64,000 bases of DNA from Verrucomicrobiota bacterium (GTDB lineage Bacteria > Verrucomicrobiota > Verrucomicrobiia > Limisphaerales > UBA8199). Within the stretch, counting starts at the first letter, position 1. Every line of letters starts with the position of its first letter. Location: contig JAAYVL010000103.1 in assembly GCA_012517205.1 (NCBI GenBank), positions 2,413 to 66,412 of the forward strand. Reading direction: 5' to 3'. The translations under genes and the position numbers were made by a program. The notes under the pieces are model-generated. The model did not search any database. It saw only the letters and a list, made by a program, of their open reading frames with translations, and was not told the origin of the DNA. Positions 4,297-60,178 of this stretch are shown here, piece after piece.

Positions 4297-4612
4297 GCAT
4301 GAAATCACGCCCTTTCAGGGCTTGGCGAGGTGTGGGATTCTTTCCCAGGGCGTTGCCCTGGGCTATCACATGGCGCCCCGTTGGGGCGGGGGCGCAAGAC
4401 GGAACGGGTGCGCCAACGAGACCGGAGTTGGCCGCAACAGGCAAGAGGAGATAGCCCAGGGCAACGCCCTGGGAATAGCGTCCCCCAATCAACCCAGCCC
4501 TGAAAGGGCGAAACATGGATCAATCCCACACATAACGCCCCGTTGGGGCGGGGTGGCGGCCCCGTTTGTTGGGACGTTGTCCTGGCTATTGCATAACGCT
4601 CCGTTGGGGGCG
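4297..4612. repeat. REP-like array 1: one forward unit, one inverted unit and degenerate units of a three-hairpin GC-rich repeat
   Basis: Hairpins read directly from the sequence. H1 GCCCTTTCAGGGC is at 4309-4321. H2 CCCAGGGCGTTGCCCTGGG is at 4344-4362. H3 CGCCCCGTTGGGGCG is at 4374-4388. Inverted H2 is at 4455-4473 and inverted H1 at 4497-4509. A second H3 is at 4536-4550, and degenerate copies run to about 4611. The same units flank the RAYT gene at 6694-7146. Confidence 0.85.
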
Positions 4613-4865
4613 GGCAGCTTGGGCATCTTCCACGGCGGGCTTGAAGGTGACGACGAGCACGCGCTTGGCCCCGAGCTTTTTGGCGAAATGGTGTAGTTCT
4701 TGATGTTGGCGGTCTTGAGTTGCTCGGCACGCGCTGCTTCACGCCGCGCGGAGTCTGCCCTATCTTGGGCAATCCCGCATGCGCCGGGTCGCCAATCGCG
4801 TAAGCATAAATACACGGGCGAGTTTCCGGTTTCGGGGCAAGGATTTCTTCGAGGATCTTACGCAT
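4612..4865 (-). pseudogene. N-terminal fragment of a GIY-YIG/T5orf172-helicase type restriction-associated gene (frameshifted, truncated by REP array 1)
   Basis: The ATG at 4865 overlaps the methyltransferase stop by 8 nt (ATGCGTAA). Three frames in succession give MRKILEEILAPKPETRPCIYAYAIGDPAHAGLPKIGQT, then AEQLKTANIKNYTI, then FAKKLGAKRVLVVTFKPAVEDAQ. These resemble a T5orf172 N-domain followed by the start of a helicase. The fragment ends in the REP array. The family call is from memory of motif style only. Confidence 0.45.
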
Positions 4866-6085
4866 CGCTCTCTCCCACCGGGCGAATAGTGGACTCAATG
4901 AACTCGATTTCGTCGGGAGTCAGCCGATATCTTTTGTAGAGTGCCTTATCGGGCCACGACTTTGAGAAGTCTTGGGCCGGGACAAAAACGAATGACCCGC
5001 GAGTGATGTTTTGGGTAAGCAGAATGGCAGAAACAAGGAATCGCACAAATCGCGTGCGCAGATATTCAGCAACGTGCTCCGCCTCCCGTTCTGATTTGAA
5101 CGGCCCTATAATTAAATATGACTCCGTCGCAACTGAATTTGGGGACATGACCTCAATTCTTGACAGCACGCGTTTCCGGCCCGACTTATCAGGCTGGCCT
5201 GCATGCTCGCTCGATGTTTTCGAGAGTAGAACTTTCCATTTCCCGATGAGTTCTGTCCCCTTAATAACATCTTTCCGATCAATCCGACAGTCGCCACTGC
5301 TGGTATATAAATATAGCTCGCCCGTTTTATTTCCCGCTTGGGCCGCAGCGATTCCGAATGGCCTTCTTGCAGAGACGAGGGTTGAAAACTCTCGCTCGCC
5401 TCGTGCTTTCACCTTCTTCACGATGCCGCGCACACGATTATCCCGGACGAAAACCTCATATTCGTTCAGGGATCTCTCCGCTATAACACTTTGGCCATTG
5501 GCGCGAGTCTCCACCATGCAAGTGCCGGGGTTGTCCCGATCCCAAAGGAAATACATAACGCCACCGGCAACATCCACCCCACTGAATGCGTCTCTTGAGT
5601 TCGGATAATCAATTAAATGCCTGATGCGCTGGTCCGAGAGCATCTTAGCGCGAAACTCGTCCAATCCTTTGCCTCCTGAGAACCATTTCGATGGCACGAT
5701 CATTGACAAAAATCTTGGTTCGAGCGAGAGCGCTTGCTCGATGAAACGATGATAGAGCGGTATGGCGCTTGAGCCGTCGCCTCCACCGTCATTAAGCTGA
5801 TACGGCGGGTTTCCAATGATGACGTCGAATTGCATGTTGCCTCCAAAAATCTCGGCGAGCCGAGTCTTGATGTTGCTGTGGGAATGAATGCGCAGGCGTG
5901 AGTTTCAAGTCCCGCCGCCCGGTCGAAAACGGATTTGCCCGCGCCGCAATAGAGGCACTGGTTGCCTTCTCAAGAGTGTTTGATGCACTGGAACCAGATG
6001 TTCCCATCGTCGTTGGAGAGGTTGGTGATGCAGGTCAGCATGTCGGGGTTGCACCCGCGGAGTGCAAAGTTGGTTTGGGCAATCA
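4858..6085 (-). pseudogene. Distal part of an Eco57I-type gamma-class N6-adenine DNA methyltransferase (NPPY catalytic half plus target-recognition region). It has one in-frame TGA and one frameshift upstream of the 325-aa ORF.
   Basis: ORF 4858..5835 starts MQFDVIIGNPPYQLNDGGGDGSSAIPLYHRF (motif IV) and has no AdoMet motif I. Its frame stays open upstream as NSRLRIHSHSNIKTRLAEIFGGN to a stop at 5905-5907. Another frame from 6086 reads MIAQTNFALRGCNPDMLTCITNLSNDDGNIWFQCIKHS, then TGA (5970-5972), then EGNQCLYCGAGKSVFDRAAGLETHA. The region is visibly more AT-rich than its surroundings. Confidence 0.7.
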
Positions 6086-6086
6086 T

Positions 6087-6693
6087 TAGGCGGCCTCCAG
6101 CATGGCGCCCCACACCCGAATGCGGCAAGACGAAATGGGTGCGCCAATGGCCCGGTTTGGCCGCAACGAGGCAAGGCGGAACGGGTACGGCAACGGGCCC
6201 CCGCGCCCCAACGGGGCATCATGCGATAGCCTAGGCAACGCCCTGGGAACAGCGCCCCCCAACCAATCCAGCCCTGAAAGGGCGAAACACGAACCAATCC
6301 CACACATAACGCCCCGTTGGGGCGGGGGGGGGGGCGGCCCCGTTTGTTGGGGCGTTGGCCCGGGGTCCGCATTATGCCTCGTTGAAAACCAGGGGCGCGA
6401 GGATTCAAGCAAGGAACCGCATCTTGAAATCTCGCCCTTTCAGGGCTTGGCGACGTTGCGGGGCTCTTTCCCGGGGCGTTGCCCCGGGCTATCACCGGGC
6501 GCCCCGTTGGGGCGAGAGTGATTCGGCGATTATTATGCGCCCCCGGTGTGGTGGCATGCGCCCGAATGCGGCAAGACGAAATGGGTGCGCCAATGGCCCC
6601 CCCGCCCCAACGGGGCGTCACGCGATAGCCCAGGGCAACGCCCTGGGAACAACGCCCCCAAACCAATCCAGCCCTGAAAGGGCGAAACATGGG
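6087..6693. repeat. REP-like array 2 (two inverted units, one forward unit, and a duplicated spacer motif)
   Basis: Inverted H3 is at about 6204-6217, a degenerate inverted H2 at 6230-6247, and inverted H1 at 6271-6283. H3 is at 6310-6324 and H1 at 6434-6446. The H2 variant CCCGGGGCGTTGCCCCGGG is at 6470-6488 and H3 at 6500-6514. Further inverted copies are H3 at 6603-6617, H2 at 6629-6647 and H1 at 6671-6683. The spacer CGAATGCGGCAAGACGAAATGGGTGCGCCAATGGCCC occurs twice, near 6115 and near 6562. Confidence 0.85.
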
Positions 6694-7146
6694 TCAATCC
6701 CACACATAACGTTCGTCATACGCAACGTTGTATTTTTTCAGCCAACGCCGGTATTCCTCCTGAAACGTCATCGCGCGGTGATGCTCGGCTTGCTCGCCAA
6801 TGTATTTCGCATGCGCCGCGCGGTGGGATGGACTGAGCGAGAAAATGCCATAGCCACTTTGCCAATGAAAGCGGGCATAGCGAAGCCCCTTCGTTTTCAG
6901 CCATTTGGATGTGCCGGTCTTGATCTCCTGGACCAAGTCGGCCGGCGCGCACGTACGGGGCATGGCGATCAGCAGATGAATATGGTCGGCGACGGAGCCC
7001 GCCTTGAGCAGTGTGCCCTGTTGGTTCGCCACGATGCCCCCACAGTACGCGTGGAGTTCATCCCGGATGTCGTCGGCCAGCACCGCCTCCCGGTTCTTCG
7101 TGGAGAAGACCAGGTGCGCGAGGATTTGGGCAAGGGATTGAGGCAT
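6694..7146 (-). CDS. tnpA: IS200/IS605-family Y1 (HUH) transposase of the REP-associated tyrosine transposase (RAYT) type
   Basis: 150-aa ORF MPQSLAQILAHLVFSTKNREAVL...ADHIHLLIAMP (HUH)...WQSGYGIFSLS...EHHRAMTFQEEYRRWLKKYNVAYDERYVWD. Inverted REP units abut both ends. The start codon lies inside the repeat CATGAAATCACGCCCTTTCAGGGC. Confidence 0.9.
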   Translation of the reverse strand: MPQSLAQILAHLVFSTKNREAVLADDIRDELHAYCGGIVANQQGTLLKAGSVADHIHLLIAMPRTCAPADLVQEIKTGTSKWLKTKGLRYARFHWQSGYGIFSLSPSHRAAHAKYIGEQAEHHRAMTFQEEYRRWLKKYNVAYDERYVWD

Positions 7147-7417
7147 GAAATCACGCCCTTTCAGGGCTTGGCGAGGTTGTGGGGCTCTTTCCCAGGGCGT
7201 TGCCCTGGGCTATCCCATGGCGCCCCGTTGGGGCGAGGGTGGCCCCGTTTGTTGGGGATTGCCCCGTTTATTGAGGGTGGCCCAGTTTGTCGGAGGTTGC
7301 TCCGGACTATCGCATGACACCTCGTTGGGGCGCGGGGGGCCGGGCGTGATTGGGGGGCTTTTTCCCGGACATTGCCCTGGGATATCGCAATATGCGCCCG
7401 GGCAGGAGTTGGCGGAT
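7144..7417. repeat. REP-like array 3 (one intact forward unit plus decaying units)
   Basis: H1 is at 7155-7167, H2 at 7191-7209 and H3 at 7221-7235. These are followed by GGCCCCGTTTGTTGGGG-type mini-hairpins and a degenerate H2 (CCCGGACATTGCCCTGGGATATCGC) near 7365-7390. Confidence 0.8.
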
Positions 7418-8062
7418 TTATAGTGTTGCCTGCGGCGTCCTGGCGATCAGCTCACTCACAGTCATCGGGGGGTAGGTTTTGGTGGGCGTGAAAATCTCGT
7501 GCTTGCCGAGTTGGGCAAAGAGCGAGTCCTGAGCACTGAACGCCGAGGACAAAGTCAGGCTTTGCAGGCTAAAGTCGCGCCGCTGGTAACGTCCTTTCCA
7601 AAGATAAGCCCACTCGGCGAAGGTGATGGGCAAATTGTCCCAGGTGCGCATTTTCATGGCGTCGCCGTGGATGAGGTTGACCGACAGCACGCAGACGGCG
7701 GCGCGATAGAAATCATCGGAAGGTTCGAGATTCAAATACTCGGCGAAGATTTCCAGCAGATTGGCGCGGCAATCGGCAATGTTGTCCGGCAACAACTCGA
7801 TGCCATAAACGCACATCAGCGCGAGCAGTGCGTAGTGCCGCCGCTCGAAATCGGATTTGCCGTATTTGAGTTCCACAGCGGCGAGTTTGCGCCTGAGGAT
7901 CTGGACAAGGAAGTTGCCGTTGCCGCACGCCGGTTCCAGAAAGCGCGAGTCAATGCGCTTGGTTTCGCCCTTCACGAGGTCGAGCATGGCCTCGACCATC
8001 CACGCGGGGGTGAAAACCTCCCCGTGGTCGGCGACGCGTTGTTTGGACTTCACCAGCGCCAT
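7418..8062 (-). pseudogene. Proximal part of the same(?) gamma-class N6-adenine DNA methyltransferase (motif X and AdoMet-binding motif I). Its ORF ends a few codons into the REP insertion.
   Basis: 214-aa ORF MALVKSKQRVADHGEVFTPAWMVEAMLDLV...SRFLEPACGNGNFLVQIL...NLIHGDAM. There is no NPPY motif. The last codons (RTPQATL, stop) are read from sequence immediately next to degenerate REP units. Confidence 0.65.
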
Positions 8063-11108: not shown

Positions 11109-12374
11109 TCAGTCCGAGGAGATCAGCTTTTCCCAGAGCGTCTCGTTCAGCAGCACCTTTTGCAGGAAGCTTTCTTCGGTTTGCGGGGATGCGGCCCGGT
11201 TCGGATCGAGCGGCAACCGCAGCCGGAACGTGGTTCCGCGCCCGGGCTCGCTCCGGGCGTCAATCCATCCCCCGTGATGGTGCACGATGAAATAGCAAGC
11301 CATCAGGTGGATGCCATATTCGGCCGGACTGTCGCTGCGCAGCACAAACGGGTCGAACACCAGCCGCAGCGCCTCCTGGGGCAGCCCCGGTCCGTCGTCG
11401 TTCAGCTCGACCAGCACCTCGGGCTGGCCCGGCGGCCCGGCATCCAGCAGCTTGGCGGTCAGGGTGACCCGGTTGCCGGCGGACAGGCTGACGAGCTCAT
11501 CCCGGAGCAGCAGATCAAACAGCCGCGTGAACTTCGGCAGGTCCACGTTGAGCGCCGGCAGGGAGTCGGGGATGTGGTTCTCCACCACGATCTGCTTGCC
11601 GGCAAACGCATCCTTCAAGCTGGCGATGACGCCCGCCACCACTTCATGCAGATGCGCGCGGTTGGCAAACTCATAGGTGGGCTTTTCCGAAGCGGTCCAC
11701 AGATCCTTGAGCAGGTGGCTGATCTTTTCGATTTGCCCCTGGACGTTCTGGTAATACTCCTTCCAGAAATCCGGGTTGCGCAAACTCTCCATGTCCAGCT
11801 TCTCCTCGGCCATCTTGGAGGGCGCCAGGTCCAGGAACGTCTTGACCGCCACCAGCGCGTTGCGGATGTGGTGGCTCAGGCCGGCGGCCAGCAGGCCAAG
11901 GCTCACAATCCGGTCGGCAATCATCATATTGTGCAGCACGGACATTTTCTCCTTCAGCAACTGGTCGCGCTCGCGCTGCACCATGAAAAACTCCAGCCCG
12001 CGCTGCAGGGTGTTTTCCAGTTGCGGCACATCCCAGGGTTTGGTCACGTATTTGTAAATGGCGCCAGTGTTGACGGCGGCAATGGCCACCTCCATATCGC
12101 TGTAGGCGGTCGCCAGAATGCGAATGATGCGCGGGCGAAGCTGGCGCGCCTTTTCCAGCAGCCAGATGCCCTTCTCGCCGGGCATCCGCTGATCGGTCAT
12201 CAGCAGCCCGATTTCGTCTTTGTGCGCCTCCAGCAGCTTCAGCCCCTCTTGCGCATTAGGCGCGGTAAAGATGCGGAACTGATCCCGGAACGCCCGGGTA
12301 AAATACTTCAGGGACAGCTCTTCGTCGTCAACGTAGAGGATCGCAAATCTCTGGTAGTCGTAAAGATTCTGCAT
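11109..12374 (-). CDS. Response regulator with histidine-kinase-like output domain (PhcR-like architecture)
   Basis: N-terminal receiver: ILYVDDEELSLKYF...LLMTDQRMPGEKG...KPWD. This is followed by the H-box LAAGLSHHIRNALVAVKTF and a HATPase-like C-terminus (LNDDGPGLPQEALRLVFDPF...GRGTTFRLRLP) with a degenerate G2 box (EYGIHLMAC). Confidence 0.85.
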   Translation of the reverse strand: MQNLYDYQRFAILYVDDEELSLKYFTRAFRDQFRIFTAPNAQEGLKLLEAHKDEIGLLMTDQRMPGEKGIWLLEKARQLRPRIIRILATAYSDMEVAIAAVNTGAIYKYVTKPWDVPQLENTLQRGLEFFMVQRERDQLLKEKMSVLHNMMIADRIVSLGLLAAGLSHHIRNALVAVKTFLDLAPSKMAEEKLDMESLRNPDFWKEYYQNVQGQIEKISHLLKDLWTASEKPTYEFANRAHLHEVVAGVIASLKDAFAGKQIVVENHIPDSLPALNVDLPKFTRLFDLLLRDELVSLSAGNRVTLTAKLLDAGPPGQPEVLVELNDDGPGLPQEALRLVFDPFVLRSDSPAEYGIHLMACYFIVHHHGGWIDARSEPGRGTTFRLRLPLDPNRAASPQTEESFLQKVLLNETLWEKLISSD

Positions 12375-12396
12375 AGCCGTTGTCTGATCGTTTCAT

Positions 12397-13758
12397 TTAT
12401 GGCGTTCCCGGGGCGGGAAACTCCAGCGTAATCTCACAAAACTGGCCGGGCTCCGACCGCGCCGAAATCCGGCCGCCGCAATTCTGCATGATCGTGTGGC
12501 ACGTCGCCAGGCCCAGCCCCATGCCCTGGCCGACATCCTTGGTGGTGAAAAACGGGTCGAAGATCTTGTCCAGGTGCTCCGCCCCGATGCCGGGGCCGTT
12601 GTCCCGCACCCGCAGGATGCTCTTGCCCGGTTCGAGGCATCCCTCGATTTGAATGGCCGGGGGCTCGCCCGCGAAGGTCTTGGTCTTGAGCGCATCCAGC
12701 GAATTGGTCAGCAGGTTGAGCAGTGCCTGCGTCAGCAGGTTCTTGTTGGCCCAGACCGTTTGCCGCTCCGCCAGCTTCGACTCGATCCGCACCTTGCCTT
12801 TCCATTCGTTGCTCAGGAACCGCAGCGCCGCGGTGACCACTTCGGCCACCTCCACCGCGTCCCGGCTTTCGGTCTCGGGATGGGTGAACGTGCGCAAGCT
12901 GGATACAATATCCTTCACCCGCTGGACCCCATCCTCCACGTCCTTCAGCACATCCGCGTATTCCTCCTGCTCCGCGGGCGGCAGGTGCCGGCTCTTCTTG
13001 CGCAGCGTGAACAGCCCCGTCGCGGTGAAGTTCAGCGGATTGTTAATCTCGTGAATGATGCCCGCGCTCAGGCGGCCGAGCGACGCCAGCTTCTCGGATT
13101 GCACCAGTTGCAGCTCGGTTTCTTTGAGCTGCTGGATCGTGGCTTCCAGAATCCGGTTCTGCCGGTCCAACTGGTAGCGAAAGGCAAATTCCCCAAAGCG
13201 GATCTTGCTGTGAAAATAGCTGCCCGTGGCCACGATGATTCCCGTCAGCCCCAGGAAATAGACGTTGTTGACAAAAAGATGCCAGGCCACGGGACCCTGA
13301 TTAAAGAAGACCGCGGCCAGGTAGAGGCCCAGCACCAGCACGGCGGCGCACAGGCTCTCGCGAAACGTCCAATGCAGCACAAACGCCAGCACCAGCAGCA
13401 CCAGGTTCAGGCCGGCGTAGTAGGGCGAGGCCGCGCCATCCGGGCTGACCTTGATCATGTAGGCCATGCAGGAGGTGGGCAGCATGAACAGCGTGATGCC
13501 CAGGAACCGGTAATACTTGTGCCCCAGCGGCGTGAGCAGCAGGGCCAGGAAGGCGCCGATCAACACCGCGTTCTCCAGCCGCAATTTGAGGAATTGCGCC
13601 GCCAGCGCGGGATAAACCGCGTGGTCAATAATGACCCCGGCCGGCATCAGCACCATGCCAATCACGCAGGCCACCTTGAAGTTGCTGATCGTCTGCCGGC
13701 GATCATACTCCGCAAACGCCGCCTCGATCTCGCGGTTATGGGGCGCGCCGTCAGCCAT
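12397..13758 (-). CDS. Polytopic membrane sensor histidine kinase (PhcS-like position)
   Basis: The N-terminal half is hydrophobic, with about 6 predicted helices. HisKA: ASLGRLSAGIIHEINNPLNF. N-box: LLNLLTNSLDAL. G-boxes: VRDNGPGIG and GQGMGLGL. The start chosen is MADGAPHN at 13758, which overlaps the upstream stop by 8 nt (ATGGCTGA). The track start is 13788. Confidence 0.85.
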   Translation of the reverse strand: MADGAPHNREIEAAFAEYDRRQTISNFKVACVIGMVLMPAGVIIDHAVYPALAAQFLKLRLENAVLIGAFLALLLTPLGHKYYRFLGITLFMLPTSCMAYMIKVSPDGAASPYYAGLNLVLLVLAFVLHWTFRESLCAAVLVLGLYLAAVFFNQGPVAWHLFVNNVYFLGLTGIIVATGSYFHSKIRFGEFAFRYQLDRQNRILEATIQQLKETELQLVQSEKLASLGRLSAGIIHEINNPLNFTATGLFTLRKKSRHLPPAEQEEYADVLKDVEDGVQRVKDIVSSLRTFTHPETESRDAVEVAEVVTAALRFLSNEWKGKVRIESKLAERQTVWANKNLLTQALLNLLTNSLDALKTKTFAGEPPAIQIEGCLEPGKSILRVRDNGPGIGAEHLDKIFDPFFTTKDVGQGMGLGLATCHTIMQNCGGRISARSEPGQFCEITLEFPAPGTP

Positions 13759-15271
13759 GCTCCGGTTTCCTCGCTTCCACAAAAACATTCACCTCCGTCG
13801 GGTCCTTGAGGACGCGCGTCCGGGCGGCGGAAAGCCCCGGCGGCAGCAGCGCCGCGCTCTGCGCGGGGTTGCGGTAGAACAGGTGCCAGTCCAGCACAAA
13901 TTCCAGCATGTGGCGGAAAGGCTTGCAGTCCTCCACGTTGGTGGCCGCCAGCCGCCCGCCCGGCGCCAGCCAATCGTAAAGCCCCGCCATCACCTGCGCG
14001 GCGATCCGGTCCGACAGGTAATCCAGCAGGCCGGCGCAATAGATGAAATCATATTCCCGAACCGGCGCCGGCGCCGCCCGGGCGCCCTCTTTAATCACCT
14101 GCTGCACCGATTGCCGCCGGATGTCCAGCTCCACGCGCCGCCCATGGCGCCGCCGGCAATCCTCCAGCACCCGCTGAACGTGCCGCGTCGTTTCCTCGTT
14201 GAAATCCCACAGCTCGAAGCGCGCCGGGTGGCCCAAGGCGTCCTCGGCCAGGAACTCCTGGATTTCCCGCGCCGGGCCGCACCCCAGGCTCAACACGCGC
14301 AGCGGCTGCCCCCGGGCCGCCCGGCGGCGCGCCTCCTCCCGCAGCAGCCCCTTCAAATACTGAATGCGATTGCGGTGCGCCCGCGCCGGCCATTGGCTCA
14401 GGAACCACCGGTTTACCACCTTCGCAAACAGCGAGCCGCCCTCATGCGGGTCGCGCAAAATCATGTTCACCATCTCGTAGTCGCCCGCGTAGCCCAGCGG
14501 CTTGTGGTAGGTGCGATGCGCAAACGGCGCGCACAGGACCAGCGGATGCAACAGGCGCTGCGCGAAAACCTGGTGCACCGGCCGCAGCTCCGGCTCGAGG
14601 TCCGCCGCGATGCTCTCCAGGCGCTCATGCATCGCGTCGAACGCCGGCACCATGTCCCGTCCGATTTCGCGCGCGGCGGCTTCCTCCCGCTCCGCCCGCG
14701 CGCCGGGCCGGGCGGCGCGAATCTCCACCTCCGTCTGCTCCAGCCAGAGCCGCAGGTCGCTCAGAAAGGTCTGCATGTCGGCCACCACCACCTTGAAGGC
14801 GGGCCGCACGCGGTAGAGCTTCTGCCAATGGCCCAGGAACGCCTGAAACCCCTCGTGCAAGGGCGCGGGATCCTCGCCCGGGGAAAAGGAAGACAATCGA
14901 AAGCTCCCCTCATCCAGCCGGACTTCGCCGATCAGCATCGTGCCCGCGTTGATCAGCGCGGTGACCACCGCCCGCCCCTCATAAATTACCCGCCCTTGAA
15001 GAATGATCTGGAAGCCCTCGAGCACCTCCGAAAGCTGCAGCACCAGGCCGGGCTGGTAAATCTCCAGCACCGCCGAATACCGGGTAAGCCGCCGCAACCG
15101 GGCGCGCAGCTCCCCCGCCTGGCGGCTTGCGCCAAGAACCAGGTTCTCTGTGGACGCGCCGTTTTTCATGATCCGCGGGACCGCGGCCGTGAGCGTGTCG
15201 CAAGCGGGCGGGCGAAGCAACCCCTTAGCGGCCGCCCCGCTCGCGCTCGACTCCGTCCGTGGTCTTTTCAT
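13751..15271 (-). CDS. Class I SAM-dependent methyltransferase of the PhcB-like (hydroxy-fatty-acid methyl ester synthase-like) type, with an uncharacterised N-terminal region of about 200 aa
   Basis: YHKPLGYAGDYEMVNMIL is followed by the SAM motif RVLSLGCGPAREIQEFL. Later motifs are FDFIYCAGLLDYLSD and LAPGGRLAATNV. The start is uncertain: 15271 (MKRPRTE) or 15169 (MKNGAST). The track start at 15451 would overlap the upstream gene. Confidence 0.75.
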   Translation of the reverse strand: MKRPRTESSASGAAAKGLLRPPACDTLTAAVPRIMKNGASTENLVLGASRQAGELRARLRRLTRYSAVLEIYQPGLVLQLSEVLEGFQIILQGRVIYEGRAVVTALINAGTMLIGEVRLDEGSFRLSSFSPGEDPAPLHEGFQAFLGHWQKLYRVRPAFKVVVADMQTFLSDLRLWLEQTEVEIRAARPGARAEREEAAAREIGRDMVPAFDAMHERLESIAADLEPELRPVHQVFAQRLLHPLVLCAPFAHRTYHKPLGYAGDYEMVNMILRDPHEGGSLFAKVVNRWFLSQWPARAHRNRIQYLKGLLREEARRRAARGQPLRVLSLGCGPAREIQEFLAEDALGHPARFELWDFNEETTRHVQRVLEDCRRRHGRRVELDIRRQSVQQVIKEGARAAPAPVREYDFIYCAGLLDYLSDRIAAQVMAGLYDWLAPGGRLAATNVEDCKPFRHMLEFVLDWHLFYRNPAQSAALLPPGLSAARTRVLKDPTEVNVFVEARKPEHG

Positions 15272-15327
15272 GCAATCTTCACGCGCCGGCGGACGTTTGC
15301 AACCCGCGCTTCCCGCCGCGCCCCGCC

Positions 15328-16665
15328 TCAGGCCGGAGGGCCGCCGCGGCCGCCGCCCGCCGCCCGCCACCCGCGCAGCAGCTTTCGCAGCATTCCCCAG
15401 CAGCCGTCCGCAATCCCCGCCGAGGCAAACGCCAGGTACACATCGGCGCACGGCAGCCAGCCGTTGGACGCAAAGTAAAGCGGCCGCTCGGCGCCGCGGT
15501 ATTTCGATTTGTGAAACGACAGGCCCTGAAAATTATACAGGCCATTGCCAAAACGGGCGCTCCACCGGAACAACTGCCGGGCCGCCCAGTCGTCGTTGAA
15601 CGCCCCGCACTCCAGCTTCCCAAAGGGCGCCAGCAGCAAATTGAGCACCTCCACCCCCTCCGCCCGGAATGTTTCCATGGCTACCATGTGCAGGGCCGTG
15701 GCCAGCCGCCCAAACCGCCGCTCGTCGCAGCGCACGATGTTCGCCGAATAGCCAAACACCCGTCCGCCGCGATACATCGGATCATAAAACGCAAACCCCG
15801 CCACCCGGCGCTCCGGGTCGTAGGCGACAAACTTGCGCACGCCTTCCTCCGGCTCGAAAACCGGGCGGCGCGCATAAAGCCAAATCTCCCGGTCATTGAT
15901 CTTCCGGGAGCGAACCCAACGGGCCGAGAAGGCTTTCAATTCCCGCCGCCGCTGCTTCAGGCTCATCCCGCTTTCCTCGCGGATGGTCAGCCCCTCACGC
16001 CGCGCCTCATTGCGGGCGCGCTTGATCAAGTCCAATTCCTTCCAGTTGCCTTCCGTGTTGTAGGTCTGAACCGCCATGAGCGGCTCATACCCGATGCAAT
16101 TCACTTTGAAGCCCAACGGCCGCAGCGCCCGGGCGCACGCCTCGGAAATGACGCCGAAGGCCGCGTGCCGGTCTTGCGCCAAAAAGCTGCCCACCAGGGC
16201 CGGAACGTCCTCCGGCGCGCAGATCGGGTCGGAAAAAACAATGCGCCGGGGCCGGCGCGCCCAGAGCGGGTGCCGGGCTCGCGTATAGGCAATATAACCA
16301 CTCGGGCCGATAAAATACTCCATCCCCGACTGCAGCGTCGCGTAGGCGATGCCCTCCCGCCCATGCTGCCGCAGAAACGGCGAAAGCAAATCCCATTTCT
16401 GCCGGGAATCCAACGCCCGGGCGCTTTCTCCTTCCAGAACGCGTATGCCGGCGCCTTGCGCCGGGCTGGCAGCCTCCGCCCCTCGCACCCCGGCCTTCGG
16501 CGCCCGCCGGATCCAGCCATCCGCCCGCTCCCGCCTCGCTACGGGGATAAAACTGGCCGGCTGGGCATCGGCGCCGGCAAGCAATGCCGCATCCGAATCC
16601 AAAACTGTGCCCTGACCGGAGTGGTGCATGGACCACGGCAGCGCAGAACTAGACGGCCAATTCAT
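15328..16665 (-). CDS. DUF2156 / MprF C-terminal (LPG_synthase_C)-like aminoacyl- or acyl-transferase domain protein
   Basis: 445-aa ORF. The C-terminal NFQGLSFHKSKYRGAERPLYFA resembles the conserved FKxKF...W.PRY tail of the aminoacyl-phosphatidylglycerol synthase domain. There is no membrane flippase domain. Confidence 0.7.
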   Translation of the reverse strand: MNWPSSSALPWSMHHSGQGTVLDSDAALLAGADAQPASFIPVARRERADGWIRRAPKAGVRGAEAASPAQGAGIRVLEGESARALDSRQKWDLLSPFLRQHGREGIAYATLQSGMEYFIGPSGYIAYTRARHPLWARRPRRIVFSDPICAPEDVPALVGSFLAQDRHAAFGVISEACARALRPLGFKVNCIGYEPLMAVQTYNTEGNWKELDLIKRARNEARREGLTIREESGMSLKQRRRELKAFSARWVRSRKINDREIWLYARRPVFEPEEGVRKFVAYDPERRVAGFAFYDPMYRGGRVFGYSANIVRCDERRFGRLATALHMVAMETFRAEGVEVLNLLLAPFGKLECGAFNDDWAARQLFRWSARFGNGLYNFQGLSFHKSKYRGAERPLYFASNGWLPCADVYLAFASAGIADGCWGMLRKLLRGWRAAGGGRGGPPA

Positions 16666-16961
16666 CTCTTAAGCCCCAATTACAGCGTTCCCGGTGCCAA
16701 CCGTGCGCCACAGGCAGGAAAAATGCAAAAATCTCGCCTTTTCAGGGACTTTACGCGCGAAGGGCGCCGCAAATCGCCCAATTTCACCGGAAACCCCTGA
16801 ACCGGCGCAAATCGTCCAGAACGCATTTGTGACATGGCCACCATGGACAATCCCATCCCCCTCCGGGTTTAACCCCCTCCGCGGGCGCGCCAGGCCGCTT
16901 TTTCGCCCATTCTACAAGCGCTGGCGACCCCACGGCATGGCCCTCGCCAGTTCTAAGCCGT

Positions 16962-17209
16962 CACGATTCAGTTGGGCAACTCAACTGCCAGCCCCCATTC
17001 CATCAGAATCAGGACAGCCCTGATCGCCCCGGCCACAGCCTTGGCGAACCCTTTGTTTAGCAACTTCAAGGGCATGGCTGCTGAATCCCGAGCCTTTCGC
17101 CAGTAAAATCCAGGGTTTAGGCATAAAGAGGGGTAAAATAGCGGCAAAATCTCAATCATCCCGGCTTCGGCGCACCCTGGACATACCCTGAATCTACCCT
17201 GCCTCCAAG
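16962..17209 (-). repeat. Conserved flanking module M, copy A-left (reads on the minus strand away from the hairpin)
   Basis: The reverse complement aligns by eye along its length with 32412-32655. Example of shared sequence: CCTAAACCCTGGATTTTACTGGCGAAAGGCTCGGGATTCAGCAGCCATGCCCTTGAAGTTGCTAAACAAAGGGTTCGCCAAGGCTG versus CCTAAACTATTGATTTTACAGGCGAAAGGCTCGGGGTTCAGCAGCCACGCCCTTGAATTGGTTAAACACAGAGTTCGCCAGGGCTG. Confidence 0.8.
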
Positions 17210-17306
17210 CCGTGTACAAGGGGTGTACAAGGGATGCCCATCGGGAGTCCATAGGATTTTAGCTGGTACATCCGGTGAGCATCCCTTGTACACCCCTTGT
17301 ACACGG
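17210..17306 (-). repeat. Iteron hairpin element, copy 1 (GTGTACAAGGG x2 arms)
   Basis: Left arm: CCGTGTACAAGGGGTGTACAAGGGATGC at 17210-17237. Right arm: GCATCCCTTGTACACCCCTTGTACACGG at 17279-17306. The loop motifs run in the opposite sense to copies 2-4. Confidence 0.9.
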
Positions 17307-17740
17307 CCTGAAGGCAGGGTAAATCCAAGGGGTCTGGGTAGTGAATCTGGATGCCGGAAAAGGCCGAAATCGCGGGGCGGAACGGGAGGTTGAACTCCAA
17401 GCTGCGAAAAAACCGCCAGTTGTGAATCTTTGGCGGATATGAGCGAGATTTCCGAGGGAATCAGATCGCCCGGAAATCGCCCGGCTTAATAAGTGGCTGA
17501 TCCGAAGCGACTTAGCTGGAGGCTTCCATCGCACGCCATCGTTCTATCGAAATCCATTCCACCGCTCCCTGTATGTGTAAACCATTGATTTTATAGTCGA
17601 ACGGTATTTTGGATTTAATGTTTATGCCGTTGAATTTGCTAAAAAAGAGGGTTGCCGGAGCCACGGTCTGGGCGGCCTGGGCTGATCAGGCTCTGATGGA
17701 ACGGAGGCAGGCAGTTGAGCATTTCTCCTGAATCGTTCCG
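17307..17740 (+). repeat. Conserved flanking module M, copy A-right (inverted relative to A-left, with about 200 bp of extra internal sequence)
   Basis: It starts CCTGAAGGCAGGGTAAATCC, compared with CTTGGAGGCAGGGTAGATTC in A-left. The core at 17577-17665 is GTAAACCATTGATTTTATAGTCGAACGG...GCCGTTGAATTTGCTAAAAAAGAGGGTTGCCGGAGCC. The end ...GGCAGTTGAGC...CTGAATCGTTCC matches the other copies. Confidence 0.7.
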
Positions 17741-17962
17741 GCTAAAGGTCCTTGAAGCTGGCAAAAACCATGCGTGACCCTTGCCGGGCTGAGCGAGTGG
17801 GGGTTAACCGCCGCAGAATCAGGGAAAAATCTTCGGGGCACCGTCCCGTCCAGCCCTAATACAGCATGTCCCAAGCCGGGGCAAAGCCAGCCGGGAGGAA
17901 ACCGTCTCGCAGGTCGTCAGAGTTGGGCCGCGGCGGGCCTCTGGAAAACGCCTTCTGTCAGT

Positions 17963-19267
17963 TCAAAAGCGCGCCCCCACCGTCAGCATTACGGCGTGGC
18001 TGAGGAAATCGTAAGTGCCATCCGCCCGTTCGCCGGAGCTCAAGGCGGGCTGCGAGGAGGGTTTGCTGCCGGTGACCTTGTGGCTCGGGCCGTAGCCGAA
18101 TTGATAGGCCAGGTCGAAATTGTAGCGCTTTCCCCGGAACCCGCCGCCGATGCTGAAAAAGTGCCGGTCCAGGTCCGCCGCCAGCGGGGTGTAATAGGCG
18201 TTCGGCACGGAGTTCTCGCTAAAGGCGTAACCGGCGCTCAGATGCCAGCCGGGCTCGAAGTATCGAGTCACGCCAAAGGAGTAAATCCAACTGGATTGCC
18301 AGTAGAGTTTGACATCCACGTTTCTGGAAATGGGATACGGCGGGGCGGGCGATTGGTAGAGCGTGGTTTTGCCAAAGCTGCTCCACTCCGTGTAATCCGC
18401 GTTAAACTCCAGGTTCCATTTCGGGGTGGGCCGGTAGGAAATCCCCACCACGGCCGTTAAGGGGAAGTCCAGTTCCATGTGCGCCGAGCGCCGTCCCTGC
18501 TTGATGTTCGGCTGGCGCAAAAAGTCCGTATTTCCCTCCAGTTTCACCGGGGCTGCACCGCGAAACGTTGCGCCCAGCGAGAGTTTCCTATGCGGCTGGA
18601 AAAGCACGCCCAGGTTGTAACTCTCGCTCCAGCCATCCCCCTTAAAGCGGAAGTAATCCTTCAAAAGCGGGCTGAGCTTGCGCAGCCCCTGCTCCATTTC
18701 CAGGTCCACGTAATTGATCATCAGGCCGCCGCCCAGCGACAGCCAGGACGCCGGCCGGAACGCCACCACCGGGTTGATGGTCGCGTAAGTCAGCGAGGCG
18801 TCCGTGGCGATCGAGCGGAAACCCGTGTTCTGCGGCCAGCTTATGCTGCCGCCATACGGCGCATAAAGCCCCACGCCAAAGCTCAGCGGCCAATCCCGGG
18901 GCGTGTAAGTGGCAAACCCCTGGGGAACCGCCGCCCAGGAATCCTTGATATGATACGTATTGGTGCGGCCTGGCCCGGGCGGCGTAAAGCGCGGCTCGTA
19001 GTAAAGCCCGCTGATTCCGCCCCGGAAGTTGAGCCCCTCAAGCTGGGTAATGCCCGCCGGATTGTAGAAAACGGCCGAGGCATTGTCGGCGGTGGCAACG
19101 AACGCCTCCCCGCGCGCCGTCGCAAAGGCATCCTGGCCTCCCAGCCGGAAGCCGTTGGCCGGGGCCTCCAAGGCCCAGGCCCCCCACAGCAAAACCGTCA
19201 GCAAACCGGAAATCGTCCGCCGGTTATTGATCATAGTCAGTCCAGTCAAATTAGCACGCCGCCTCAC
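17963..19267 (-). CDS. Outer-membrane beta-barrel transport protein, OMPP1/FadL/TodX family
   Basis: A signal-like N-terminus is followed by GFRLGGQDAFATARGEAFVATADNASAVFYNPAGI and a terminal aromatic ...TVGARF. The start may be MINNRRT at 19234. Confidence 0.8.
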   Translation of the reverse strand: MRRRANLTGLTMINNRRTISGLLTVLLWGAWALEAPANGFRLGGQDAFATARGEAFVATADNASAVFYNPAGITQLEGLNFRGGISGLYYEPRFTPPGPGRTNTYHIKDSWAAVPQGFATYTPRDWPLSFGVGLYAPYGGSISWPQNTGFRSIATDASLTYATINPVVAFRPASWLSLGGGLMINYVDLEMEQGLRKLSPLLKDYFRFKGDGWSESYNLGVLFQPHRKLSLGATFRGAAPVKLEGNTDFLRQPNIKQGRRSAHMELDFPLTAVVGISYRPTPKWNLEFNADYTEWSSFGKTTLYQSPAPPYPISRNVDVKLYWQSSWIYSFGVTRYFEPGWHLSAGYAFSENSVPNAYYTPLAADLDRHFFSIGGGFRGKRYNFDLAYQFGYGPSHKVTGSKPSSQPALSSGERADGTYDFLSHAVMLTVGARF

Positions 19268-32303: not shown

Positions 32304-32411
32304 CCGTGTACAAGGGGTGTACAACGGGTGTACAACGGATGCTCACCAGATGTACTATGGAAAATCCTTTGTACACCCGTTGAGCATCCGTTGTACACCC
32401 CTTGTACACGG
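32304..32411 (+). repeat. Iteron hairpin element, copy 2 (three units in the left arm)
   Basis: Left arm: CCGTGTACAAGGGGTGTACAACGGGTGTACAACGGATGCTCACC at 32304-32347. Loop: AGATGTACTATGGAAAATCC. Right arm: TTTGTACACCCGTTGAGCATCCGTTGTACACCCCTTGTACACGG, ending at 32411. Confidence 0.9.
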
Positions 32412-32655
32412 CGTAGGGGCAAGGTATGTCCGGGCTGCGTTCGGGGTAAGCCGAAATCGGCATGATTCTGCCTCTATTTTATTCATCTTCACACCTAAAC
32501 TATTGATTTTACAGGCGAAAGGCTCGGGGTTCAGCAGCCACGCCCTTGAATTGGTTAAACACAGAGTTCGCCAGGGCTGCAGTTTGGGCGGTCAGGCCCG
32601 GTCAGACTCCAATGAAACGAGGGTGGGCGGTTGAATTACCCAACTGAAGCGTTCC
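32412..32655 (+). repeat. Conserved flanking module M, copy B
   Basis: Homologous by eye to the reverse complement of 16962-17209 and to parts of 17307-17740. The core is at 32495-32580. It ends ...GGCGGTTGAATTACCCAACTGAAGCGTTCC. Confidence 0.8.
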
Positions 32656-32698
32656 AACCAAGGCAGCGAGCAGCCGGGATTGGGGGTGAGGGACGTCT

Positions 32699-46529: not shown

Positions 46530-47180
46530 TTTTAGGCGCGCCCGCACCTGCTCAGTGCTGCGCGGGTGAGGGAGAATTGGTTTTTAAGCTCACCAGGCAT
46601 GTGGCGAGCCTTGCGGGAGCCGGTGGCGGTGCCAATGCCCGTTGTTCGCTTTATTCGCGGTAATTTTCGCCCATTCCTGGGTGTAGTCGCCGGGGTTTGG
46701 GGGCGCAGCGTATGGCGGGGCGGAGATCGCGACGGGAACGCCCGGCGCACGGGCGCGCCCCGCTCCGAGCCGGGTGGATGATGCGGCAGTTTGAGCGGCG
46801 GCGGCGGGGAAATGCCGGGGCGGGGCAACGCCAGTTCGGGCGGTCGGCCGCACTGGCGCACACCGCGCATCTTGTTCGAGCACCACCCGTAGTAGCGGGT
46901 TATCTGGGCACCTTTGCCGAGAACGTGCCAGGTGGCGCGGCGCAACCCAGCATGAATCTTCAGCCCCAGGCTCAACGTGGCGCAACCGGTTGAGAACCAT
47001 CTGGCGGGAGCCCTGGCCCCTTGGAAATAGGGCCTGACCCATGCCTTTATGGAGGGGCTCAATAATGTGTTCAGTGCCGTCAAAAGTAAGGCCTACGGCT
47101 ACCGCCCCACCGTCTGACTCCTCTTCAAGCTCCACCTGTTGGATGGCAAACTCTGTATCCCCCACACTTGATTCCACTCA
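46530..47180 (-). pseudogene. IS91-family (Y2 rolling-circle) transposase C-terminal remnant with multiple frameshifts
   Basis: Fragments appear in different minus-strand frames. They are GLTFDGTEHIIEPL, then HVLGKGAQITRYYGWCSNKMRGVRQ (the RYYGW.SN..RG motif typical of the Y2_Tnp C-terminus), then DYTQEWAKI. No intact ORF remains. Confidence 0.45.
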
Positions 47181-47506: not shown

Positions 47507-47523
47507 TGTCCAATAATTGGACA
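47507..47523. promoter_or_regulatory. Perfect palindrome TGTCCAATAATTGGACA (copy 1 of 2)
   Basis: Identical 17-mer at 59969-59985, in both cases to the right of an iteron hairpin. Here it is followed by the tandem GGACAGTTG GGACAGTTG. Confidence 0.6.
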
Positions 47524-47548: not shown

Positions 47549-48324
47549 TCAGGTATCGAAGGCGGAGAAGAGGTGGCGGAGTTCTTCCTCGATTTTCTCC
47601 CGGGAGGGGACGGTGCGGGCGGTTTCGGCGTGCGGGATTCCGCGGCAACGGGTGCGCAGGCTGGGGACGGCCATTTTCACCACGGGCGCGGTGAGGTTCA
47701 GGCGGGCGGCGATCCCGGCGTAAGGCCGGGCTGACTCTCCCCGGGCCCAACAGCTTTGTGGAGACTCGAACCGCCTGGCCCGGCCAGAGGCCGCCCACCC
47801 TTCCTGCAACTGCGCCATAGCGTCCTGGAGCAGAGTCATGGCCCATTGCCGGTCAAAGAGCAGGCCGGGCTGGATGTTGGGCGAGGGGTCAGCGGCAAAG
47901 CGGGATTCGGCGAACTCCAGGTCAATGGCGGTTATCCGCGCAAAGCCGCCGCGCTTTTGTGCGCGTTGGCGGTCTCATTCATTAGCCAGGAGCCGTTTCC
48001 AGACCAGCAGGAGGAAGGTGCGAAGCTTGCCCTTCGCTCGCGCCGCTACCTGCAGGCAGTCTTTCTGCAACCGGTGGACGAAGGAGCCTGGGCAAGGTCC
48101 CGCGCGCCCCGGGGCGCATGGCCGTGCCGCCGCCGGAAGGCGCAGAGGGGGTGTCCGCAAGCGCGGCAAAGCGTCTCGAGCGCAGTGGCCGACCTGGGCA
48201 TGTCTTTTTCGCGCGCCGGGGGCACGACCGTCCAGTGGATGGGGGTGAACCAGGCGTCTGAAGCGGGCAGCGGTGCGGGGGCGACGGAACTTCCGCCCGC
48301 GGCGGAGGGACTTGCGCGGCTCAG
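47549..48324 (-). pseudogene. ECF-type sigma-70 factor (plancto/verruco type) pseudogene: one TGA at a conserved Trp position and one 1-nt frameshift
   Basis: The minus strand reads ...THWTVVPPAREKDMPRSATALETLCRACGHPLCAFRRRHGHAPRGARDLAQ. A frameshift near 48086-48094 leads to GSFVHRLQKDCLQVAARAKGKLRTFLLLVWKRLLANE. After the TGA at 47975-47977 it continues DRQRAQKRGGGFARITAIDLEF...LFDRQWAMTLLQDAMAQL...YAGIAARLNLTAPVVKMAV...EEELRHLFSAFDT. No ATG or GTG start is left. Confidence 0.7.
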
Positions 48325-59547: not shown

Positions 59548-59832
59548 GCCCGGTGCCGGAATAAGGACGTTGACCTTTCGACCCCTCCGCGCCGGGAAAA
59601 CGAATACCCCAGCCCATTCCGACTTCCCGGCAACCTGAACCCCATAACCTCGGGAATATGCTCCCTCCCGAACCGGACGCCCAACTGTGCCAATTTGGCA
59701 CACCTCAGCCTCGACAGCAGCGCCCCATTGACCCTCTCGTGCGAGCCACTTTCGGGTAGCTCCTACAAACCATTCCATTTCCGCCAGCATCTTCATTCCT
59801 GCCAAAACCCCTGCTTTTCCCGTCCCAATTAG

Positions 59833-59929
59833 CCATGTACAAGGGGTGTACAAGGGATGCTCACCGGGTGAACACGGAAAAATCTGATGTGCATCCGGTG
59901 AGCATCCCTTGTACACCCCTTGTACACGG
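59833..59929 (+). repeat. Iteron hairpin element, copy 4 (best preserved)
   Basis: Left arm: CCATGTACAAGGGGTGTACAAGGGATGCTCACCGG at 59833-59867. Spacer: GTGAACACGGAAAAATCTGATGTGCAT, 27 nt. Right arm: CCGGTGAGCATCCCTTGTACACCCCTTGTACACGG at 59895-59929. The arms are complementary at 34 of 35 positions. Confidence 0.95.
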
Positions 59930-59968: not shown

Positions 59969-59985
59969 TGTCCAATAATTGGACA
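59969..59985. promoter_or_regulatory. Perfect palindrome TGTCCAATAATTGGACA (copy 2 of 2)
   Basis: Identical to 47507-47523. It lies about 40 bp right of hairpin copy 4. Confidence 0.6.
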
Positions 59986-60178
59986 GTCTGGGTTGCTGCG
60001 GGAAACGGAGGGGGGACGTGGTTGTTGGTGGCCGATTGGGTTGATAGGGTCGTCTTGAATTGCTGGCTCGCGGCGGAATTATCCGTGGGTGATTGGTGTG
60101 CCAATTTGGCACAGTTGATGGGCAATGCCTGGCTGGGGAGCATCCCCGGGAGACTCTTTCGGCGGGGCTCCGCCGGTC

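Follow-up and report, generated by a model that had tools for sequence, protein, structure and literature searches.

A nested palindrome upstream of a DUF2156 operon in a Verrucomicrobiota bacterium: a probable compound miniature transposon with a passenger array of 11-bp units

Results

The window examined here, a stretch of 64,000 nucleotides (64 kb) from contig JAAYVL010000103.1 of a Verrucomicrobiota bacterium, contains a palindromic element of 786 bp (16957-17742) located between a gene for a FadL/TodX-type outer-membrane transporter (17963-19267, minus strand) and one for a DUF2156/LPG_synthase_C protein (15328-16665, minus strand). Downstream of the DUF2156 gene a methyltransferase gene and then two histidine-kinase genes are found, all of them ordinary chromosomal genes. 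For comparison, a total of 74 loci, designated by L-numbers, were fetched from metagenome-assembled genomes (MAGs) and metagenomes. The order FadL-type transporter, DUF2156, methyltransferase, MASE8 histidine kinase and hybrid response-regulator/kinase (11109-19267 in the window) is kept in L040, L043 and L044, and this gene order would be compatible with a candidate "phc-like" label. The features of the element, together with those related to it in the window, are collected in Table 1.

Table 1. Positions of the element, its parts and related features in the window
Positions	Strand	Feature	Support or remark
16684-16701	-	Conserved sigma-54-like block TTGGCACCGGGAACGCTG, outside the element	Lies shortly before the start codon (16665) of DUF2156
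16954-16956	.	Left 3-bp target-site duplication, TAA on the plus strand	TAA also directly after the right end
16957-16971	+	Left outer terminal inverted repeat GCCGTCACGATTCAG	Differs from the family consensus GCCGGAACGATTCAG at 2 positions
16957-17165	-	MITE-A copy 1, complete, 209 bp, repeat at both ends	Aligns with L060:880-1090, L020, L032 and the window copy at 32 kb
17166-17211	.	Left proximal arm; 17186-17211 is the palindrome extension beyond H	Same 26-nt extension in L012, L026 and L030
17212-17304	.	H, 4+4 inverted 11-bp units (RTGYWCAMSGG), 5-bp centre ATTTT	93-bp palindrome
17305-17438	+	Right proximal arm and start of module R	BLAST matches to L007, L012 and L030, plus alignment
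17362-17376		Degenerate repeat-like GCCGAAATCGCGGGG within the right proximal arm/R
17439-17554	.	Filler, 116 bp, no counterpart among the other fetched copies	No BLAST matches
17555-17742	+	MITE-A copy 2, inverted relative to copy 1, inner end missing, outer end intact	70% identical to copy 1
17728-17742	-	Right outer terminal inverted repeat, GCCGGAACGATTCAG on the minus strand	0 mismatches
17743-17745	.	Right 3-bp target-site duplication TAA	Sequence read
32306-32658	+	Second family member: 104-bp variant of H (32306-32409), then M	Degenerate outer repeat 32644-32658; same locus in metagenome contig L070
47308-47400	.	Copy 3 of H (93 bp), not accompanied by M	P box 47507-47523
59835-59927	.	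Copy 4 of H (93 bp), in the nuoN-DUF2851 gap	P box 59969-59985

The original prediction described a nested palindrome of about 780 bp at this site, and the measurements bear it out. The arms of the central hairpin (17186-17244 and 17272-17330, 59 nt each) are 88% complementary and, when folded as single-stranded DNA, reach -53.8 kcal/mol (z = -12.3 relative to shuffled sequences). The outer arms (16956-17075 and 17624-17743, 120 nt) are 71% complementary without gaps, and by BLAST they display 70% identity over 178 nt (E = 4e-13), so that their likeness stands above chance. In fact, the block 16958-17741 folds back end to end (-188.8 kcal/mol, z = -16), and the motif GGCYTGRAGGCAGGGTARAT, predicted to be shared by the beginnings of both arms, is found solely at the two anticipated places, 17192-17211 on the minus strand and 17305-17324 on the plus strand, against 0.04 occurrences expected. 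The central hairpin was likewise recovered, but the span first assigned to it, 17210-17306, is refined to a core of 93 bp at 17212-17304, hereafter named H, from which the palindrome extends to 17186-17330.

Terminal repeats and members of the family

The block is bounded by terminal inverted repeats of 15 bp (GCCGGAACGATTCAG; 16957-16971 versus 17728-17742), complementary at 13 of the 15 positions, and outside them lies a direct duplication of 3 bp. The earlier suspicion of a foldback-type element or a duplicated end-pair agrees with these ends, and the arms themselves are inverted copies of a miniature inverted-repeat transposable element (MITE). The presence of a single TAA duplication around the block suggests that it moved as one unit. 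When the copies of the two modules that compose the arms, M and R, are aligned, both terminate in CTGAATCGTTCCGGC. Elements with the same ends occupy six independent sites including that of the window, with lengths of 754-786 bp; the other five are found in other metagenomes and MAGs, measuring 754 bp at the L030, L052/L066 and L064 sites and a similar length at L060 and L067/L071, and several recur across different samples. Perfect direct 3-bp flanks are present in four of these six sites, reading TAA/TAA in L060 and TTA/TTA in L064, in L067 and, when its minus strand is read, in the window, while the flanks of L052 carry one mismatch. Altogether, the element family comprises about 15 independent sites across MAGs and metagenomes. 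A 3-bp TNA/TWA duplication such as the one present here is a trait of the IS1031 group of the IS5 family, for which three-nucleotide insertion sites are reported (PMC2516522), and of PIF/Harbinger, whose canonical Harbinger elements generate 3-bp duplications and group with IS5 (PMC12730594).

The only open reading frame (ORF) in the element (16968-17252, 94 aa) has no Pfam match. A frame in module M is common to two copies and broken by indels in the others, and since it also matches no Pfam family M was discarded as a coding sequence. Rfam, searched at gathering and at permissive thresholds, returned generic or spurious miRNA-hairpin matches only. A literature search for the unit sequence of H yielded nothing besides unrelated primers, and no paper found on MITEs of Verrucomicrobia describes this element.

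Module organization of the element

Module M is found in the window at 16957-17211 (minus strand) and 32410-32658 (plus strand), and its distal part alone at about 17555-17742 (plus strand). The family 15-mer is also located inside M, at 17151-17165 (GCCGGGATGATTGAG), and is better kept elsewhere, e.g. as GCCGGAAAGATTCAG in L032; therefore, the distal 209 bp of M (16957-17165) constitute a small MITE with its own ends, which we designate MITE-A. In fact, a solo MITE-A of 211 bp occurs at L060:880-1090, where it abuts a composite element. The claim that M lies inverted on both sides of the hairpin holds, but the right M is not complete, being a copy without the inner end. Similarly, about 200 bp of additional sequence do exist in the right arm, but not as a simple insertion into M, since 17305-17438 corresponds to module R and 17439-17554 is unmatched. 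This arm is thus made of four parts, the palindrome extension (17305-17330), R-type sequence up to 17438, the 116-bp filler and the inverted MITE-A, and module R of other copies finishes in the same 15-bp repeat. As in a composite transposon, two smaller elements bracket a passenger, the left one with both of its ends and the right one with the outer end only. M is found on both sides of H in L048, L059 and L061 as well, and H lies within 200 bp in about 21 of the 27 metagenome matches to the M core. The flank of L048 beyond the element ends is not palindromic, and this locus represents one site read on both strands.

The locus in relatives and the putative promoter

Orthologous loci were taken from relatives in which the DUF2156 protein is 66-80% identical and the FadL-DUF2156-methyltransferase-kinase order is the same. 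The gap between FadL and DUF2156 measures 1297 bp in the window versus 195 bp in L043 and L044 and about 340-450 bp in L040. In relatives with the same gene order this gap is devoid of H, of M and of the terminal repeat, this being the comparison through which the original prediction proposed to recognize an insertion. Homology between the window and L040 ends at 17839 and restarts at 16799, and therefore about 1 kb is extra in the lineage of the window, with the palindrome inside it. Three contigs of the species of the window stop inside the 786-bp element. Two assemblies of the same species other than that of the window (L038:1-126 and L039:1-53) diverge from the window at 17047, within MITE-A, and continue into IS-end-like sequence (reverse complement GGTAGTGTCCTAAAAGTTCTGCAAAAAGC...) that is not present in the window, probably reflecting a strain-specific insertion sequence (IS) placed into the element.

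The palindrome had also been said to sit where the operon promoter must be, and this finds no support, given a block of 18 nt (TTGGCACCSGGAACGCTG) that displays the GG-N10-GC spacing of sigma-54 promoters. It recurs without change in each of the orthologous loci (L040-L044), 15-18 nt ahead of the start codon of DUF2156, and is intact in the window, where the edge of the element lies about 255 bp further upstream; TGGCAC-N7-GCT has a single occurrence in the 64 kb. The leader after the sigma-54-like block is very short, which is unusual. Neither a sigma-70-like promoter nor an intrinsic terminator is predicted in 16500-18100. The element could separate the operon from read-through of the FadL gene or from distant upstream sites.

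The passenger palindrome H

Four copies of H are found in the window, at 17.2, 32.3, 47.3 and 59.8 kb. Besides the one inside the element, the remaining three adjoin unrelated genes, two of them between convergent genes, and the copy at 59.8 kb is embedded in about 590 bp of extra DNA at a position where nuoN and DUF2851 are 42 bp apart in a relative. The length of H is quantised in steps of 11 bp: among 41 distinct copies, 35 measure 93 bp, three 82 bp and three 104 bp. H is parsed exactly into four 11-bp units, a 5-bp centre of mostly T or A, and four inverted units, and within the unit consensus RTGYWCAMSGG the positions T2, G3, C6, A7, G10 and G11 are nearly invariant. The outer units of the two arms are 99% identical, and identity declines inward to 82% in unit 3 and 62% in unit 4, the innermost, while the length remains constant. 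No compensatory pairing was detected in an alignment of 27 sequences, 85.3% of the cells being paired versus 85.4% when the partners were shuffled, and accordingly the symmetry of H reflects the consensus of its units and not the compensatory maintenance of a hairpin. Selection for a hairpin was rejected on this ground.

H is widespread in MAGs of Verrucomicrobiota (at least 33 loci), and a scan of viral contigs gave no matches. In MAG MFD02979 it is carried inside a MITE of 465 bp with other ends (GGGCGCATCTCA... / GGGCGCATCTCAACTT...), unrelated to MITE-A. Copies of this MITE (L017, L022, L027, L028 and L006) share the ends GGGCGCATCTCAACTTCTTGC and are 96% identical, and clear 9-bp duplications accompany it in L017, L022 and L028; its end may resemble those of IS1. 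The 465-bp MITE carries H together with the P box described below, exists in variants with an internal deletion of about 100 bp, and appears to have been recently active. Elsewhere H is accompanied by further flanks (modules L and T), and in two species it is kept at an orthologous site (L010 and L029). Its presence in the 465-bp MITE and among other flanks makes H a conserved module borne by several kinds of element.

A second box, here named P, accompanies many copies of H. It is a perfect palindrome of 17 bp (TGTCCAATAATTGGACA), generalised as TGTCYM-N5-TGGACA. In the window it occurs at 47507-47523 and 59969-59985, 40-130 bp away from the two copies of H that lack M, and of the first 33 genome loci 14 have it close to H (L002, L003, L006, L008, L013, L014, L017, L018, L021-L025 and L027), with unrelated sequence in between; P may act as another site of protein binding, coupled to H. 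A further palindrome, the Q box (GTGCCAATTTGGCAC), brackets H and the P box at 59687-59701 and 60098-60112, 411 bp apart, and was not found in the other loci. In L020 (1266-1320) an IS21-like element, which bears an IstA-like ORF and TGACAATTA repeats, splits H in the middle. A lone arm of four units without a partner, bracketed by CCATTG/CAATGG, is located in L033 (555-610) just downstream of an aspartyl-tRNA-synthetase-like gene, from which it follows that arrays of units can exist without the palindrome. About 190 bp to the left of the 47.3-kb copy, at 47049-47117, a degenerate transposase C-terminal remnant (MEGLNNVFSAVKSKAYGYRPTV*) follows a stop-riddled sequence. Genes for factors resembling extracytoplasmic function (ECF) sigma factors (PF07638) are found near H at three sites (window 47549-47974 on the minus strand, L022:6921-7589 and L005:1059-1568), a proximity probably due to chance, being about what the abundance of such genes in the phylum predicts. 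Nothing convincing emerged as a protein family recurrently encoded beside H.

Another repeat cluster in the window

Positions 4300-7340 hold a dense cluster of a separate family of GC-rich palindromic repeats, one copy of which (4344-4388) matches Rfam Acido-Lenti-1. The cluster surrounds an ORF for an IS200-like Y1 transposase (6694-7146, minus strand), likely a REP-associated tyrosine transposase (RAYT) with its repetitive extragenic palindromic (REP) sequences. It is situated between fragments resembling a type IIG restriction-modification gene (Eco57I domain at 4858-5835 and MmeI/N6_Mtase at 7418-8062), which suggests that insertion of the cluster split such a gene.

Discussion

The proper ends, the 3-bp duplication, the absence of the palindrome in relatives, the other members of the family and the modular anatomy lead us to consider it probable that the palindrome corresponds to one copy of a compound DNA transposon, a non-autonomous MITE of the IS5/PIF-Harbinger style, with H as its passenger. 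According to this proposal, two inverted MITE-A copies of about 210 bp, each bounded by GCCGGAACGATTCAG, would flank H and the proximal arms, and a DDE transposase encoded elsewhere in the genome would recognize the two outermost repeats. The whole unit of 786 bp would then move by cut-and-paste with duplication of a 3-bp TWA target, which is the behaviour of IS5-family (IS1031-type) and PIF/Harbinger-Tourist elements. H does not itself serve as a transposition end; eight 11-bp units in helical phase make up this conserved module, which is borne by several MITE families unrelated to one another.

Several observations weigh against this interpretation. Neither the 64-kb window nor any of the 74 loci yielded a transposase ORF flanked by a matching pair of the repeats, and we therefore infer the assignment to IS5/Harbinger from the length of the duplication and its target. 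The left outer repeat carries two mismatches, and the L030-type element is without a duplication (TTC versus TAA). Copies of the family are merely 70-85% identical, so that the family is old and may be inactive. Furthermore, the two MITE-A copies of the window are 70% alike, versus 79% for the left copy and L030, and their pairing could consequently result from recombination between elements and not from a compound design. Finally, the empty site is not alignable base for base with relatives, the alignment with L040 being uninformative because the intergenic DNA is too diverged.

At least one direct test speaks against each of five other readings: growth of the palindrome in place, a regulatory device, a REPIN/RAYT-type repeat, a terminator or structured RNA, and a partition site or iteron origin. 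It is unlikely that M was copied in inverted orientation to the right through fold-back priming or template switching promoted by H, with no transposition of a unit. Such a process would account for the palindrome reaching 3-26 nt past H in most contexts, with sequence specific to each of them, and the symmetry of the arms without selection-type covariation fits the copy-correction of a quasi-palindrome; nevertheless, the M arms of the window are less identical to each other than M is to copies in other genomes, R-type sequence intervenes between H and M in the right arm, proper terminal repeats and a direct 3-bp duplication are present here and likewise in relatives of the element, and L048, one site counted on both strands, has no palindromic flank. 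We also regard as improbable that H, with or without the arms, is an operator, enhancer or insulator of the DUF2156-methyltransferase-kinase operon whose position is selected, for which a winged-helix response regulator reading 11-bp direct repeats would be a candidate binder. The fixed length and head-to-tail units of H, suggestive of cooperative protein binding, its persistence at the orthologous site of L010 and L029, and the palindromic P box alongside it at many sites are in line with such a device. However, the orthologous operons of relatives lack the element and have kept their own promoter-like block, the other three copies of H in the window have unrelated neighbors, and the block bears transposon ends.

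REPINs, inverted doublets of REP sequences, resemble H in size, hairpin form and dispersal in intergenic DNA, and H could be conceived as a REP-like doublet that the IS200-like Y1 transposase of the window mobilizes in the form of single-stranded DNA; another Y1 gene lies about 900 bp from an H in L005. The probability of this reading is very low, since each of the two Y1 genes is surrounded by repeats of another family, the GC-rich Acido-Lenti-1-like hairpins, and on this basis it was rejected. REPs are described with a GTAG/CGTC tag (PMC3733652), which H lacks, beginning instead with GTGTAC. Moreover, an insertion of bare H was never seen, every H examined being within 0.5-1 kb of extra DNA, and its pairing is not kept by compensation. 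The same lack of covariation bears on a structured RNA gene, or a terminator or attenuator of transcription, between FadL and the operon: the fold-back potential of the block is very stable, as such a function would lead one to expect, but variable positions often break pairs, especially in units 3 and 4, Rfam gives generic hairpins only and no terminator with a T-run is predicted, which leaves this explanation most improbable. An iteron replication origin or partition site was rejected in view of the housekeeping neighbors with no adjacent rep or par gene, the four copies in 64 kb and the lack of matches in viral contigs.

With the compound transposon as the preferred interpretation, the 780-bp palindrome is explained as a transposon insertion and not as a regulatory invention of the operon, whose promoter-like block is intact. 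It would represent a previously undescribed repeat family in uncultured Verrucomicrobiota, and one that breaks assemblies. The part worth following is H, due to its strict 11-bp phasing, quantised length, conservation across species and presence in MITEs whose ends differ. They point to a module for protein binding that would serve the biology of the elements or that of the host, and from the phasing, the fixed length and the lack of covariation we hypothesize that H, as double-stranded DNA, most likely provides an array of sites for a DNA-binding protein that oligomerises. A more far-reaching proposal, to which we give limited credence, is that H is a functional protein-bound module, often paired with the P box, that has been spread through Verrucomicrobiota chromosomes by at least two unrelated MITE families, generating 3-bp and 9-bp duplications, respectively. 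If true, the spread of H would place sites for the binding of one regulator or nucleoid protein throughout the genome, a transposon-driven rewiring of a binding-site network in bacteria.

Arrays of 11-bp direct repeats that are bound cooperatively comprise the pho boxes and ArcA sites of OmpR/PhoB-type regulators, the parC iterons of plasmid R1, to which ParR binds, and the pMV158 bind locus. H is similar to these arrays in its period of 11 bp, in its several head-to-tail units and in the conserved positions on one face of the DNA, but it differs in having no adjacent rep, par or regulator gene, in occupying many chromosomal sites and in being composed of two mirror-image arrays. As a hairpin repeat of about 100 bp that is dense in intergenic DNA (four in 64 kb), H is reminiscent of REPINs, bacterial interspersed mosaic elements (BIMEs), enterobacterial repetitive intergenic consensus (ERIC) sequences and Correia-type repeats, and with BIMEs it shares the mosaic combination of modules, being found with M, R, L, T or P boxes. 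It differs in having no association with a RAYT and no GTAG/CGTC tag, and it displays eight phased 11-bp units, a quantised length and a DDE-type MITE as carrier. Foldback (FB) elements also possess long inverted arms with short tandem repeats and can fold back as a whole; however, they are eukaryotic and their arms consist mostly of tandem repeats up to the termini, while in the present element tandem units occur in the central 93 bp and nowhere else.

Composite transposons and mobile insertion cassettes offer a closer parallel at the level of architecture, in that smaller inverted units flank a passenger and the outermost ends are apparently used together, leaving one duplication. The flanks here are non-autonomous MITEs of about 210 bp and not full insertion sequences, and the passenger is a non-coding palindrome and not a gene. 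Tourist-like MITEs of the IS5 (IS1031-group)/PIF-Harbinger type are likewise short and non-coding, with terminal inverted repeats, a 3-bp TTA/TAA duplication and many diverged intergenic copies, all of which the present family displays. In comparison with them, the 15-bp end is not assigned to a named IS and a cognate transposase was not found in the window or the 74 loci; furthermore, this element is no simple deletion derivative but compound, made of two small MITEs and a passenger. The element is a new family, but of a known kind, a MITE in compound form.

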